This document shows, one piece after another, positions 33,361 to 46,229 of a stretch of 64,000 nucleotides of DNA. Below the pieces are notes generated by a model. That model made no database searches. It saw nothing but the letters and a program-made list of their open reading frames with translations, and was not told where the DNA came from. Source of the stretch: Camelus dromedarius (lineage: Eukaryota); the NCBI RefSeq assembly GCF_036321535.1, contig NC_087436.1, forward strand, positions 31,932,001-31,996,000, given 5' to 3'. Within the stretch, counting starts at the first letter, position 1. Every line of letters starts with the position of its first letter. A program made the translations under genes and the position numbers.

Positions 33361-36271
33361 ATGAATAACTATATGGCAACAAATTGGACAACCTAGAAGA
33401 AATGAACAAATTTCTAGAAACATACAGTCCAGCCAAAAGAATCAAGAAGAACTAGACAATTTGAATAGACCAATCACTAGAAGTGAAATAGAATCAGTAA
33501 TGAAAAAAATTTCCTGCCAACAAAAGTCTAAGACCAAATGGCTTCACTGGGGAGTTCTACCAAACATACAAAGAGGAACTTATACCAATCCTTCTCAAAC
33601 TTTCCAAGAGACTGAAGAGGAGAGAACATTCCCAAACTCATTCTATGAAGTCATCATCACCCTGAGACCAACACCAGACAAAGACACTACCAAAAAGAAA
33701 ACTAAAGGCCAATATCATTGATGAATATACATGCAAAAATTCTCAACAAAATATTAGCAAACCAAATCCAACAATACATTAAAAAGATTATACACTAAGA
33801 TCAAGTTGGATTCACCCCAGAGACACAAGGATGTTTCAACATATGCAAATCAATCAATGAGATACCCTACATCAACAAAAAAAGAGGAAAAAAAACACTT
33901 GATCATCTCAATAGATAAGAAAAAGCATTTGATAAAATTTAACATCCATTCATGATAAAAACTTACCAAAATGAGTATAGAGGGAACATATCTTGACATA
34001 ATAAAAGCTATTTATGACAAACCCACAGCCAACATAATACTCAATGATGAAAAGTTGAAAGCCTTCCTGCTAAAATGAGGAACAAGACAATGATGCTCAC
34101 TCTCACCACTTCTATTCAACACAGTATTGGAAGTCCTATCCAATCAGGCAAGAAAAAGCAATCAGACAAGAAAAAGAAATAAAAAGGATCCAAATTGGAA
34201 GAAAAGAGGTAAAATTGTCTCTATATGCAGATGATGTGCTGCTATATATAGAAAACTCTAAAGGCTCCACACAAAAACCACCAGAGCTGATAAACAAATT
34301 CAGCAAGGTAGCAAGATACAAGATTAACATACAGAAATCTGTTGCATTTCTTTACACTAACAATGAAATATCAGAAAAGGAAAGTAAAAAAATTTGAAGA
34401 TCACTTTTAAAATCACATCAAAAAAAAATCACATCAAAAAAATTAAATTCTTAGGAATAAACGACCAAGGAGGTGAAAGACTTATATGATGAGAAACTAT
34501 AAAACACTGATTAAGGAAATTAAAGATGACTTAAAGAAATGGAAAGCTATCCCATGCTCTTGGATTGGAAGAATTAATATTGTTAAAATGGCCATACTAC
34601 CCAAAGCAATCTACAGATTTAATGCAATCTCTATCAAATTACCCAGAACATTTTTTTACAGAACTAGAACAAATAATCCTAAAATTTACATGGAATCACA
34701 GAAGACCCAGAATCATCAAAGCAATACTGAAGAAAAAGAACAAAGCTGGAAGAATAACCCTCTCAGACTTCAGACAATACTACAGAGCTACAGTAATCAA
34801 AACAGTATGGCATTGGCACAAAAACAAATATACGAATCAAAGGAACAGAATAAAGAGATGAGAAATAAACCCATACACCTACAGTCAATTAATCTTTGAC
34901 AAAGAAGGCAAGAAAAGACAGTCTCTTCAGCAAGTTGTCTTGGGAAAGTTGGACAGCCACATGTAAATCAATTAAGTTAAAACACTCCCTCACACGTACA
35001 CAAAAATAAACTCAAAATGGCTTAAAGACTTAAACATAAAACAAGACACTATAAACCTCCTAGAAGAAACCATAGGCAAAACATTCTCCAACATAAATCT
35101 TAGCAATGTTCTCCTAAGGCAGTCTACCCAAGCAATAGAAATGAAAGCAAAAATAAACAAATGAAACCTAATTAAACTTATAAGCTTCTGCACAGCAAAG
35201 GAAACTATAAACCAAACAAAAAGACAACCTACAGAATTGGAGAAAATATTTGCAAATGATGAGACTGACAAAAGTTTAATTTCCAGAATATACAAATAGC
35301 TCATACAACTGAAAAACAAAAAAATAAACAACTCAAGCAAAAAATGTGCAGAAGACCTAAACAAACATTTCTCCAGTGAAGACATATGAACGGCCGATAA
35401 GCACAAGAAAAAATGCTCAATATCATTAACTACTGGAGAAATGCAAATCAAAACTACAATGAGGTATCACCTTATATCTGTCAGAATGGCCATTATTAAG
35501 GAGTTCACAAATGATAAATGCTGGAGAGGATATGGAGAAAAGGAACCCTCCTACACTGTTGGTGGGAATGTAGTTTGGGTCAACCACTATGGAAAACAGT
35601 ATGAAGATTCCTTAAAAAACTACAAACAGACTTACCATATGATCCAGCAATCCCATTCCTGGGCATATATCCAGAGAAAACTCTAATTCAAAAAGATGCA
35701 TGCAACCCAATGTTCATAGCAACATTATATACAACAGCCAAGACATGAAAGCAATCTAAATGACAGCATCAACAGATGATTGGATAAAGAAGATGTAGCA
35801 TATATGTTCAATGGAATACTACTCAGTCATAAAAAAGAATAAAATAATGCCATTTGCAGCAATATGGATGGACCTGGAGATTGTCATACTAAGTCAACCA
35901 AGCCAGAAAGAGAAAGAAAAATACCATATGACATCACTTACATGTGGAATCTAAAAAATGATGCAAATTAACTTGTTTACAAAACAGAAACAGACTCACA
36001 GACATAGAAAATAAACTTATGGTCACCAGGAGGGAAATGGGGGTGGAGGGATAAATTGGGAGTTTGGGATTTGCAAATACTAACTACTATATATAAAACA
36101 GATAAACAGTAAGGTCCTACTGTATAACACAGGGAACCATATTCAATACCTTACAATAGCCTATAATGAAAAGGAATATATATATATGTATAACTGAATC
36201 ACTATGCTGTACACCAGAAATTAACACAACATTGTAAACTGACTATACTTCAATAAACATTGAAATATATA
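33361..36271 (+). mobile_element. 5'-truncated lineage-specific L1 (about 2.9 kb): decayed ORF2 RT and C-terminal region, 3' UTR
   Basis: ORF fragments match L1 ORF2p: [32 protein letters not shown] (RT YADD), [38 protein letters not shown]; many stops and frameshifts; possible TSD AAGAAATATT at 33351-33360 and 36272-36281. Confidence 0.95.
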
Positions 36272-36567: not shown

Positions 36568-36628
36568 AGGGAGTGAGGGGGTACAGCTCAGTGGTAGAGC
36601 ACATGTTTAGTATGTACGAGGTCCAGGA
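36568..36628 (+). mobile_element. Partial tRNA-derived SINE (5' head only)
   Basis: 'gggggtacagctcagtggtagagcacatgtttagtatgtacgaggtccagg' then similarity stops before the B box. Confidence 0.8.
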
Positions 36629-39358: not shown

Positions 39359-39432
39359 GGTGGGTGGGAGTATAGCTCAGGGGTAGAGCATGTGTGCACA
39401 AGGTTCTGGGTTCAATCCCCAGTACCTCCACT

Positions 39433-39471
<39 letters not shown>

Positions 39472-39504
39472 TTAAAATAATAATAATAATAATAATAATA
39501 GTAA

Positions 39505-39537
<33 letters not shown>
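39359..39537 (+). mobile_element. tRNA-derived SINE with compound microsatellite tail (AC)17-(AAT)n-(CTG)11
   Basis: 'gtatagctcaggggtagagc...gggttcaatccccagtacctcc'; TGCTCCTGT at 39350-39358 and 39538-39546. Confidence 0.9.
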
Positions 39538-39543
<6 letters not shown>

Positions 39544-42556: not shown

Positions 42557-42709
42557 TTTTTTTTTAATTTTTTTTTGAGAAGGGTAGGTAATTCTTTTTT
42601 TTTTTTTTAACTTACTTATTTATTTATTTTAATGGGAGGTACTGGGGATTGAACCCAGGACCTCATGCATGCTGAGCATGTGCTCTACCACTGAGCTATC
42701 CACCCACCC
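42557..42709 (-). mobile_element. tRNA-derived SINE with 16-bp TSD
   Basis: Antisense A/B boxes; CACCT(G/A)GTTTACTTAT at 42541-42556 and 42710-42725. Confidence 0.92.
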
Positions 42710-43088
42710 CACCTAGTTTACTTATGCTAGTCATAGTGGTGCCAATGGGAGAAATCACAACAGATCTGCCCAAGGAATTCCTGAGTTCACAGGCTCATTG
42801 TGTTCTCTTTGATCCCCAGCTCAACCAATTCTATATGATCTCTGTTCTTGTATCAACTGAAACCCATTTCTTCCCTCTCTCGTGTTAATAAGAATAAAAA
42901 ACTTGACCGTCTCTTTCTCTTCATCATAACTACTTTTCCAAGTGTTTTGCTGATCAAGTCATATTTGCCTGATTCTACTGATTTAATAGAGTCTATGTCT
43001 ATCAACAAAATCTAACTATGCATGAGCACGTAATTATACCCTTTTATATATGGAACTTCTTAATTTCCTATTCTCATTAATCTATTAA

Positions 43089-45412
43089 CATGTTGATCAC
43101 CACATTGCCCAAATCTGGTGACAGTTGTGTCTCCTCAGAGGCCCCGTCACCCAGATATGGGTGACGCTTTCCTTCATCCAATTATGCAGGTTTTTACAAG
43201 TAACTTCCAACAGTTTTCATTTGTAATACAAGTATTTAATAGTAACAACATATAAGTATATATGCAGATAGATAAAAATATTTTCTTTTGAACAAAATTA
43301 TATAATATTACATTACTTATGATACTCATTTAAACAGTTTATACAAAGCTGCAGTGTTTTTGGACAACTAGGACAATATGTTCCTGTCTTTTTTACATTT
43401 TTTCTAGTTTCTTGTCATTCCAAAGTTTGCCTGCTTTCCTGATAACAGAGGACACACATTCTTCTGATTGTTTTGCCTTAGGGATTTTTTCTAATTTGTA
43501 AATTGTGAATCTCTCCTCCTTTATCCCCTTGCATATTATTGGACCTAATATTTGGAGAATATAACCATTCCTTAACTAAGAGTTCCCTAAATTTCGATAT
43601 TTGACTTTTTAAATTTGCCTTTGCCTGGTATACAAGATGTGAATTTATGACAGAAATCCCAATAAGTAGATGTAGTGTTAATTTCTGGTAGCATTTGATA
43701 CTTTTTCATAATGTTGTTGCATATGAAAACCATCTGGTCACTTCTATCAATGCCACTTTCCTTTATTATAATCAAGTATGGCTCATTTTTATAAGATTGT
43801 GGTGAAGAGCAGATGAATTTGAACCAGTACCATAATGGGTGCGTGTTTTGTCAAAAGTATTCTTACATCCCGAACATCTTTCCATTTCAGGATGACAATG
43901 GAATTGTCATCTTCTCGCAACACCATTTCACCTCTTTTTAGTGAATGGGACAGAACATCTTTTGGAATAAACTTTTATTATGCTGTGCAGTCCCAATAAC
44001 ATGAGTTTTCAAACTAAAAAATTTAAGGACCAATTAGTAGCTGGTGTAGAAGTTATCTACATACAAGGTATGCCCTTCATTCAGTAATTTTTCTGCAAGC
44101 GCACTGCAAACATTTTGAGCTAATCCGATTTGCTCGGCTCTACTAGTCTCTCATCCAGAACATATTTTTATCGACCTCGTATAACCTTTGGTCGAACAGA
44201 ACTTAAATAATTTTATTCCATATTCGTGTGTTTTATTTGGTATATACTGTCTAAATATAAGTCTTCCCCTCCAAGGAACCATTGTCTCATCGATTATGAC
44301 ATCTGGGCCCAGTGAAAAATTGTTTTGATAATTTTCAATCAAAGTTTAACCAGTGGTAATATTTTTCCAAGCCTATCACCTCTTTCAATTGTCTCATTAT
44401 TTGCAAAGTGCAAATTTGATAATAACAAATGAAAATGATTATGAGACATTACAGTACACGACAATGTGAAATTGTAAAGGGGGTCTTTTGAGCAATATTT
44501 AGTCATAGATATTGGTTTCACTAGACCTGTCCAAATCAGAAGAGCAAGGAATTTTTTAATTTCTTCAGAAGTAGGTTTCCACCTCTTTATTCGACTACAC
44601 ACCATGTTTAGATGTTGAAGTAATTTTTGTTCCACATATCTGTTTGTCTCCTTTACCAGATGGTTTATTATTACGTCATCTAAAAATAGCAAAAGAATTT
44701 TGCCTGGGCTGATATCACGAGGTAATTCTGTCTGAAGTCCACCTTTTCCTGTGAATATAAATGACTTTTGTCTGCCAGTAAACTCTTTTCACTGAGTATT
44801 ATCTAGTGCACCATCATTATCCTCCTCTGTTTCTTCCTCTTCCTCTACAACTAATTGTTCTAAAATCTCCTCAGTGTTTTCAACTTCAGCATAACCTTTC
44901 TCCTCATTCTCTGAGCTTGAACTTAACAAAATTTTATTTATCTTCTTCTGACATGGATTACTTCATTGTCACTGCTAGTGTCACTCTCAACTGTATTTTT
45001 ACGTTGTAAGGATATGAAAAATACTTGAAAGATGCACAGACTCTAAGATGCAGAATAAAACTGCCGAGCTGAATTGAACAGAGCAGGCAAACGAGCAGAG
45101 TACCATTCTAAACAACCACTTATCTACCAGTTCTACCAATTGGATCATATATCACTCTCGAGCTAACAAATATCAAAGTAATGCCACAGCACCCCAGACT
45201 ATTCCATTACCCAAATTTATTCTATACAGAATAATTCCAAGAAGAATTATAATAGTAAAGAGGTTGAAAATTGAAAATAAGAAATTTTTTTTAACACAAT
45301 TCCAGTTATACTGGAAAAACAGATTAATTATAAGCAAATATATTGTTAGTGCATCACACTGTGGTGAAGTGTGAACTTGGAAACACATGCGATCCAGTGG
45401 GCGATCAACGTG
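43089..45412 (-). mobile_element. Full-length piggyBac-superfamily DNA transposon (2324 bp)
   Basis: TTAA at 43085-43088 and 45413-45416; TIRs CATGTTGATCACC (43089-43101) and reverse complement CACGTTGATCGCC (45400-45412), 11/13 identical; encloses a transposase pseudogene. Confidence 0.95.
43313..44966 (-). pseudogene. piggyBac (DDE_Tnp_1_7, PGBD4-like) transposase, about 550 codons, inactivated
   Basis: Acidic N-terminus; LVKETNRY; IIDETMVPWRGR..FRQYIPNK..YGIK (Asp codon 44289-44291); LYVDNFYTS (44055-44057); GIDRSDQ (43746-43748); C-terminal RRMCVLC..YCPSCPKTLQLCINCLNEYHK-stop (43313-43315); in-frame stops at 44789, 44151, 44034, 43478, 43415 plus several frameshifts; start codon uncertain (ATG at 44954 or 44966). 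Confidence 0.95.
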
Positions 45413-46229
45413 TTAAGTCAAATTTCTCTCTACTTTAATAAAGTAGTTTTCCTAATCTCAAACACTATCATATATATGACATATATCTGTCAGCCATGTA
45501 AACATGACAGTTTTAATATAAATGGGAAATAATAACTCCCATTGGTGCTATTTATTTACCTTCCCAATGCTACTGAATTTCTATATCAGCTCATTGTTAT
45601 TAACAAATAAATATATGACTGGATTTCCTAAATACATTTGAATTTTATAGTTTATCATTTCATACAGGAGAAATATGTAGCCAATGTTTTTGCCTACTCT
45701 CCCTCTGAAAATTTCACTTATCTTAGACATGATTCATGTAGAGTGACTACAAATAGTATGTTTAAATAGTTTATACATTTTCTTTATGGTCATTCTTTTT
45801 CTGTGGGCTTTAACCTGTTAGACTTTAAAATGCTGTAAAAGCACTGTAAGAATACACTCAGGCTGGAATTTTTTAATCAAAATTTTCCTCCCTATCAGAA
45901 GGAATAATTATTCAGAAGCCTTGTAGATTGGTCATTTCTTAAGAAGCTAAATCATATGGTACTGTGTCTTAGCCAACTGTCCAGGGTCAGCAAAATGCTA
46001 TGGCCTGTTCTGTTTGATGGCCTCAGGCAGAAAGCCACAGCATTCTCACTATTAATATCTCTTGAACTTTCAACTTACAAATAAAAGCATCCCTGTGGCC
46101 ATTTTTCCCCCTGTATATCCATGAAAAACCAAGGATCTAGAGCTTGAGATAAGAAATATTTTAGTTTAATTATTTTTAGCCATAATCCTGGGCTTTTATG
46201 TAATGAATGGAATTTTGTGAAATTTTGTG

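Follow-up and report, generated by a model that had tools for sequence, protein, structure and literature searches.

A dead full-length piggyBac element in the dromedary genome and the probable arthropod source of its family

How a full-length piggyBac transposon came to lie in a camel genome, when its family moved there and from what source the lineage arrived were the questions raised by a 64,000-nt stretch of Camelus dromedarius DNA (hereafter the window), in which positions 43085-45416, both TTAA target sites included, are a piggyBac fossil. All coordinates given without a contig are positions within the window. As a whole, the element was read as a full-length autonomous copy, now dead, from a piggyBac family of low copy number which was active in camelids and was acquired horizontally, and a probability of roughly 0.7 was assigned to this reading.

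Ends and transposase of the element

The element is bounded by the TTAA target-site duplication, at 43085..43088 on the window-left side (the 3' side of the transposase gene) and at 45413..45416 on the window-right side, as the initial annotation had reported. Immediately inside lie the 13-base terminal inverted repeats (TIRs). The left TIR (43089..43101, + strand) reads CATGTTGATCACC and departs from the family majority CACGTTGATCGCC by two decayed CpGs, while the right TIR (45400..45412, - strand) is undecayed, reading GGCGATCAACGTG on the + strand and CACGTTGATCGCC as its reverse complement. The pair is complementary at 11 of 13 bases, and each of the 2 mismatches is a CpG-to-TpG/CpA transition, as had been claimed for them; the CpG observed/expected ratio of the 64-kb window was 0.16. 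The ancestral TIR proposed earlier, CACGTTGATCGCC, was recovered exactly as the majority base of every column at either end among the 38 family members in which both ends were recognised.

Two subterminal palindromes were found near the left end. The first (43104..43122), for which the family form is GTCACCCA-N4-TGGGTGAC, is decayed in the window copy, being mutated and one base short; it lies at element position 20/21 with at most 3 substitutions in 6 of the 7 full-length copies described below, the exception being the window copy, and it is preserved in the 91-base mini-elements of the family. The second (43146..43165, GTCACCCAGATATGGGTGAC) is intact, occurs at the corresponding place in 5 of the 7 full-length copies and is a candidate transposase-binding site. 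At least one of the two is also present in the other full-length copies. The 5' non-coding part of the element occupies 44963..45399 (- strand).

Between these ends, a transposase pseudogene of about 550 codons was read on the - strand at 43313..44962, along a path of five segments in frames 1, 2, 0, 2 and 1, which crosses 4 frameshifts and 5 premature stops. It begins with an acidic N-terminus (44789-44962, - strand), followed by the piggyBac-type catalytic domain, which was matched in Pfam as PF13843 (DDE_Tnp_1_7; 43971..44707, - strand) by two transposase fragments with E values of 1.7e-20 and 8.6e-27, each above the curated cut-off of 22.4 bits. The motifs VIIDETMVPWRGR (IDE), LYVDNFYTSY and GIDRSDQ were all found. 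By motif alignment to the Trichoplusia ni piggyBac structure 6x67, the codons of the first aspartate (Asp, in IDE) and the second (in VDNFY) were placed at 44289-44291 and 44055-44057 on the - strand; the third catalytic-type Asp, for which a catalytic role is predicted, lies at 43746..43748 (- strand) in GIDRSDQ, a motif common to the hymenopteran relatives. The Asp residues of these three motifs are what we take to be the DDD catalytic triad of the ancestral enzyme. Compared with PDB entries, the core fragment matched T. ni piggyBac (6x67, E 1e-9) and piggyBat (9c0f, E 9.6e-9), with the alignments running across the IDE and DNF/W motifs, and no PDB match was obtained for the two C-terminal fragments.

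A probable remnant of the C-terminal Cys-rich (zinc-binding) domain lies at 43319..43456 (- strand), CVLC...CPSC-x6-CINC-x4-H, with one stop inside. The spacing C-x2-C...C-x2-C-x6-C-x2-C-x4-H is present, and the same cysteine pattern was seen in a bee protein when the full-length copy L005 was compared; the Pfam scan listed no family for the Cys-rich fragment. Residues 24-557 of an Anthophora protein align to the window copy in tblastn pieces, with 48-62.5% identity per segment; tblastn omits the short GIDRSDQ segment, and the full five-segment path comes from reading of the sequence. All transposase features noted beforehand are present, namely the acidic N-terminus, the three motifs and the Cys-rich tail, and the piggyBac call, based on TTAA, short TIRs and a PF13843 transposase, stands. 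The description of the transposase as readable end to end holds for a fossil read in five segments and fails for an intact frame, given the 4 frameshifts and 5 premature stops. The transposase gene of the window is dead.

Copies, age and activity in the camel genome

The suspected camelid host was confirmed to the genus Camelus, as the single-exon PRNP frame of the assembly encodes a 255-aa protein without any difference from the prion protein of C. dromedarius and C. bactrianus. The 2.3-Gb assembly has 38 chromosome-sized contigs, and the window lies at 31.93-32.00 Mb of its contig C1. A DNA search of the same genome scored 40 of 109 candidates and gave 72 matches, so that the following counts are lower bounds. 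At least 7 full-length copies, the window copy included, were found, with lengths of 2324-2381 bases and 80-83% identity to the window copy, together with two further partial coding copies. Both TTAAs are retained in 6 of the 7 full-length copies; the right TTAA of L003 is mutated and the right end of L005 is truncated. Three shorter forms share the ends of these copies. The form of about 500 bases joins query positions 1-332 and 2180-2332, and the commoner form of about 335 bases joins positions 1-105 and 2127-2332, the latter part corresponding to approximately 45211-45416 in the window. The 91-base mini-element, both TTAAs counted, joins about 61 bases of the window-left end to about 26 bases of the right end and contains only the two ends and one palindrome (for example G000:C2:33120007-33120097, among loci L047-L076), which suggests that two ends and one palindrome sufficed in cis.

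After 70 loci were looked at, some of which were duplicates of one place, 38 distinct elements with both ends recognisable remained: 17 of 91 bases, 13 of 331-354 bases, 3 of about 500 bases and 5 of full length. The 91-base form was therefore the commonest among the best end-motif matches (17/38). TTAA was retained on both sides in 22 of the 38 and on one side in 12, and was mutated on both sides in 4. A 34-base subterminal motif occurred 168 times with at most 3 mismatches (80 forward, 88 reverse) vs 0 for the reversed control, and since about two thirds of the copies are expected to pass this filter at about 9% divergence, a total of a few hundred copies was inferred. Chance can be set aside, because identical ends recur genome-wide in different flanks. 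In this way, the element was confirmed as an autonomous-type piggyBac copy with both ends, from a real family with non-autonomous derivatives. The label of a master-type copy could not be sustained, as at least 7 full-length copies, the window copy among them, are equally dead and stops occur at all family places. The window stretch with its flanks occurs in 20 sequencing runs from 10 studies; its occurrence in a second organism was indicated by a word share of 0.92 only.

Two pairs of copies were conspicuous for their positions. An identical derivative with identical flanks is present at C38:15957127-15957421 (L040) and C37:109865194-109865488 (L041), on contigs of 20.6 Mb and 114 Mb, and looks like a region common to two sex-chromosome-sized contigs. 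On the same 114-Mb contig, G000:C37:59806948-59807289 (-) and 59913121-59913462 (+) showed the same match statistics in opposite orientation, about 106 kb apart, which suggests a large inverted duplication.

The family was then set beside the other piggyBac-derived sequences of the genome. A whole-genome Pfam search gave 20 PF13843 matches, 12 of which fall in 8 places of the camel family, all with stops. Three of the 20 are stop-free, comprising one exon and two long frames that span 607 and 533 aa (G000:C3:114426173-114427252 on the - strand and C19:18436827-18437897 on the + strand). These two frames showed 21-27% identity to the camel family and are probably the domesticated PGBD2- and PGBD1-type genes of the host. 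Five weaker fossils are located at G000:C1:17982676-17983089, C11:10512129-10512731, C4:13303473-13303754, C34:4084399-4084608 and C5:10434696-10435049. No DNA similarity to the camel family was detected in the three that were compared (C1, C11 and C4), which argues for their descent from older piggyBac lineages; two of these three match the bee protein with 25-35% identity over short stretches. Among the piggyBac lineages found in the camel genome, this family is therefore preserved best, and none of the places found holds a living or domesticated member of it.

The age of the family was estimated from the 7 full-length copies. Their 21 pairwise Kimura two-parameter (K2P) distances had a mean of 0.175, which under a star tree puts the copies about 8.8% away from their ancestor, and with the CpG-bearing columns masked the mean decreased to 0.144, or 7.2% from the ancestor. 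The mean pairwise divergence was 0.200 in the 335-base class and 0.157 in the mini-elements, the latter value being unused for dating because those loci were picked by their match to the 34-base motif. With an assumed generic mammalian rate of 2.2e-9 substitutions per site per year the clock age was 33-40 million years (My), and with an assumed slow rate of 1.2e-9 it was 60-73 My. Judged by this divergence of 7-9% from the ancestor, the piggyBac family is old, not recent.

A relative date was provided by a short interspersed element (SINE) resembling tRNA-Ala(AGC), a copy of which adjoins the element at 42600-42745 (- strand, with an A-rich tail ending in ...CCTAATTACCTCCCC). Further window copies lie at 1244-1345, 39362-39436 and 36577-36627, and two of the window copies were called tRNA-Ala by ARAGORN. 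For the 38 elements, empty sites were rebuilt by joining the flanks and compared with the SINE at 42600-42745. At 2 of the 38, both occupied by 335-base copies (L035 on C37 and L036 on C17), the empty site was a TTAA at the junction of SINE body and A-rich tail, and the flanking duplication of the host SINE itself was retained (AAATGACATCTTT in L035, TAGTGTCTTTAT in L036). Conversely, the piggyBac derivative L010 is interrupted by a SINE of the same type that carries a duplication of about 14 bases. Nesting in both directions indicates that the piggyBac family was mobile while the tRNA-Ala-like SINE was active.

The window SINE probably belongs to the camel family vic-1, which was reportedly first described by Lin et al. 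2001. According to SINEBase (PMC3531059), vic-1 is a simple SINE found "in camels", and it originated independently of the similar rodent ID and armadillo DAS-I. If the host SINE is vic-1, the piggyBac family was active within the camelid lineage. Such activity is likely on this sequence evidence, and the nesting seen both ways (L035 and L036 in one direction, L010 in the other) supports movement of the family inside the camelid lineage. The nesting is the main support for lineage restriction, with the camel-specificity of the SINE taken from SINEBase.

Closest relatives of the transposase

The 136-aa core fragment of the transposase, when compared with longer proteins, gave 72 matches among 274 candidates. 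The top named matches were all from Hymenoptera (Anthophora, Dinoponera, Habropoda, Polistes and Osmia), with 57-67% identity, followed by other insects and an isopod, and no mammal was among the 72. For the 149-aa N-terminal frame, the best match was from Polistes fuscatus, 60% identical across 99% of the frame (3 matches among 33 candidates); the lack of a mammal among these 3 carries little weight, as fossils are rarely annotated. In tblastn of 152 proteins against the family copies, the best showed 50-58% identity over about 470-600 aa, and the identity of hymenopteran proteins to the family transposase reached 63-67% in the core.

A maximum-likelihood tree of 65 rows was built from 7 camel copies and 58 of the 72 core-fragment matches. 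The 7 camel copies formed a single clade with a support of 99 in the Shimodaira-Hasegawa-like approximate likelihood ratio test (SH-aLRT), and this clade was sister, with a support of 99 for their union, to an 11-row clade of 10 named Hymenoptera and 1 unnamed row, inside arthropods. A profile made from 8 proteins of the sister clade (7 named Hymenoptera and 1 unnamed) was used to score 8000 candidates, among which 481 proteins had E <= 1e-30; in the best 120 of these 481, all named proteins were from arthropods (Hymenoptera, Diptera, Coleoptera, Hemiptera, an isopod and scorpions). The suggestion of horizontal acquisition thus fits, and is not proven by, a set of closest proteins which are arthropod, chiefly hymenopteran, and not mammalian. 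Horizontal arrival was inferred because the host shows no evident active source of piggyBac and the closest relatives are from arthropods; judged from these sequence comparisons it is somewhat favored, and an arthropod-type source is the most likely form of it. The 34-base motif had 0 matches in a metagenome scan, and among 42 pattern matches with hymenopteran alignment in viral contigs, 0 were confirmed as a viral carrier.

The hymenopteran piggyBacs, named "PGBD4-like" in NCBI (Anthophora, Osmia, Polistes, Dinoponera, Athalia and Habropoda), provide the closest transposases and share both the GIDRSDQ motif and the C-terminal cysteine pattern with the camel family, which differs in its mammalian host, its extinction and its CpG decay. 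The CAC start of the camel ends had been regarded as a mark resembling piggyBat, an element that begins with CAC. This view was weakened, since a survey of bee piggyBacs describes TTAA targets and ends of about 13-14 bases, a large share of which start with CAC rather than CCC (PMC10140906); the camel end therefore fits a hymenopteran affinity and is not peculiar to piggyBat, although CACGTTGATCGCC differs from the CACTA...TACCG logo of the bee elements in the same survey. Hymenopteran piggyBacs have also been reported to transpose in mammalian cells (PMC13416829).

Compared to these relatives, piggyBat of Myotis lucifugus and T. ni piggyBac are distant. They belong to the same superfamily, with TTAA, a DDD core, cut-and-paste movement and alignable first and second Asp motifs, but the core fragment scored 38.9 and 42 bits against them vs 150-190 bits for hymenopteran proteins. 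In organization, the family resembles piggyBac1/2_Mm and npiggy of the mouse lemur and the bat families (Pagan 2010, Paulat 2023; PMC2997546, PMC10162687), in which an autonomous element is accompanied by short TTAA-flanked derivatives sharing its ends, activity is lineage-limited and horizontal transfer was inferred; the camel family differs from them in being older (7-9% from the ancestor), with far fewer copies and a large herbivore as host. Human MER75, MER85 and Looper with PGBD1-5 are likewise decayed relics with TTAA and short ends, in which forms like miniature inverted-repeat transposable elements dominate (PMC5381638, PMC12324416).

In the literature, word searches found no description of a camelid piggyBac family and no Repbase-style name, and the end sequences were found only in an unrelated Helicobacter enzyme study. 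A Camelus repeat paper mentions piggyBac once (PMC8605555). Neither camel nor vicugna is mentioned in the bat-centred survey of horizontal transfer in mammals (PMC10162687), and neither alpaca nor vicugna in the mouse-lemur paper (PMC2997546). That these texts are silent need not imply that Dfam or Repbase lacks the family. A camelid piggyBac invasion with hymenopteran affinities was probably unreported before.

Origin of the family and alternative explanations

The following course of events would account for these results. A piggyBac may have entered from an arthropod-type source by horizontal transfer, with a transposase that is placed as sister to a hymenopteran group and appears unrelated to the camel's domesticated piggyBac genes. 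By analogy with known systems, a DDD transposase of about 550 aa with a Cys-rich domain would have bound the 13-base ends CACGTTGATCGCC and the GTCACCCA-N4-TGGGTGAC palindromes, cut the element out and inserted it again at TTAA. The internally deleted forms (about 500, 335 and 91 bases) would have been mobilised in trans by the same enzyme. In camelid ancestors, the family would have been mobile after the start and before the end of the spread of the tRNA-Ala-type SINE, roughly 33-73 My ago according to the rate assumed, and all transposase-bearing places found are now decayed.

Several points weigh against this reading. The tree leaves out 14 unnamed short matches (<430 aa), and its camel rows were stitched on the coordinates of the Anthophora protein, with a possible pull towards the clade of that protein. 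Camel and bee sequences were the seeds of the word-based searches from which the comparison set was drawn, and this set contained no vertebrate piggyBacs (PGBD4, piggyBat, Uribo), so that a closer vertebrate fossil relative would escape. At full length, hymenopteran proteins show a moderate identity of 50-58% to the family, too low for a donor to be named, and the camel copies form a sister group of the hymenopteran clade instead of branching within it. With regard to the host lineage, the slow-rate age, which reaches about 73 My, coincides with or is earlier than the divergence between camelids and the remaining artiodactyls, restriction to camelids depends on 2 of 38 nested sites and a literature statement about the SINE, and the host SINE was typed as tRNA-Ala-like by ARAGORN, not by the published vic-1 sequence.

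Among the alternatives, the strongest holds that the family is lineage-limited yet wider than camelids, shared by all Cetartiodactyla or by several laurasiatherian orders, with an invasion before the camelid split and a SINE older than assumed. The range of 33-73 My, calculated with assumed rates, spans the artiodactyl radiation, and this explanation also draws on the two points just made on SINE typing by ARAGORN only and on nesting at just 2 of 38 sites. It was considered unlikely, since SINEBase gives the camel simple SINE an independent origin (PMC3531059), and, as a weak point in addition, no such family for pigs, ruminants or whales was found in the literature by word searches. Descent from an old, widely shared mammalian family of the MER75/MER85/Looper kind, passed vertically from an early eutherian or laurasiatherian ancestor, would leave no camelid-specific story. 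Most mammals carry decayed piggyBacs (PMC5381638) and the slow clock reaches about 73 My, but such vertical descent is improbable on several grounds: the copies are only 7-9% from their ancestor, two members lie inside a tRNA-Ala SINE of a type reported as camel-specific (PMC3531059), 3 of the 5 weaker fossils of the genome were tested and share no DNA similarity with the family, the closest proteins are from arthropods, and PGBD3/PGBD4 with their partners MER85/MER75 are described as primate-restricted (PMC5381638, PMC12324416).

Two further explanations have almost no probability left. Contamination by insect DNA or mis-assembly would agree with the insect origin of the closest proteins; it was ruled out by the distribution of the copies, which are many, decayed and CpG-depleted, are spread over many chromosomes each with unique mammalian flanks, and are nested with camel SINEs, and the window stretch with its flanks recurs in 20 runs of 10 studies. 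A domesticated piggyBac-derived host gene, still functional, could explain why the motifs are well preserved, but the broken frame of the window copy (4 frameshifts, 5 premature stops) and its 21-27% identity to the intact host frames ruled this out for that copy, stops are present in 8 of 8 family places matching PF13843, and the copies evolve in a neutral-looking manner with an excess of CpG transitions.

The preferred reading thus remains a camelid-active family of horizontal origin. A more detailed scenario, in which a hymenopteran-like piggyBac entered the camelid stem in the Eocene-Oligocene, gave rise to three derivative classes and died, leaving a family that is restricted to Tylopoda and absent from curated libraries, is tentative and seems less likely to be right than wrong. 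If true, it would be the first documented case of a piggyBac reaching an artiodactyl horizontally, and it would mean that a large herbivore had a late burst of DNA transposition. Among mammals, DNA-transposon activity and horizontal transfer have been reported chiefly for bats, plus a few small insect-eating or arboreal lineages, and recent gain of DNA transposons was linked to carnivory in one analysis (bioRxiv 10.1101/2022.12.28.522108). A camelid piggyBac with hymenopteran relatives would add a herbivore case and a data point on transfer routes. Presence or absence of the element at TTAA sites would also provide clean phylogenetic markers for Tylopoda, while the practical value is small for a dead element with few copies and of a well-understood type.

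Other features were recorded during the analysis. Nuclear copies of mitochondrial COX1 with many stops were found at G000:C18:39242922-39244160 and in 10 more matches, and the search with PF00115 revealed no mitochondrial contig in the assembly. In the window, long open stretches resembling reverse transcriptase at 33365-35686 (+ strand) were recognised by eye only as an L1 ORF2 remnant, and a compound microsatellite of (CAG)n, (TAT/TTA)n and (CA)n lies at 39440-39540, next to a SINE copy.

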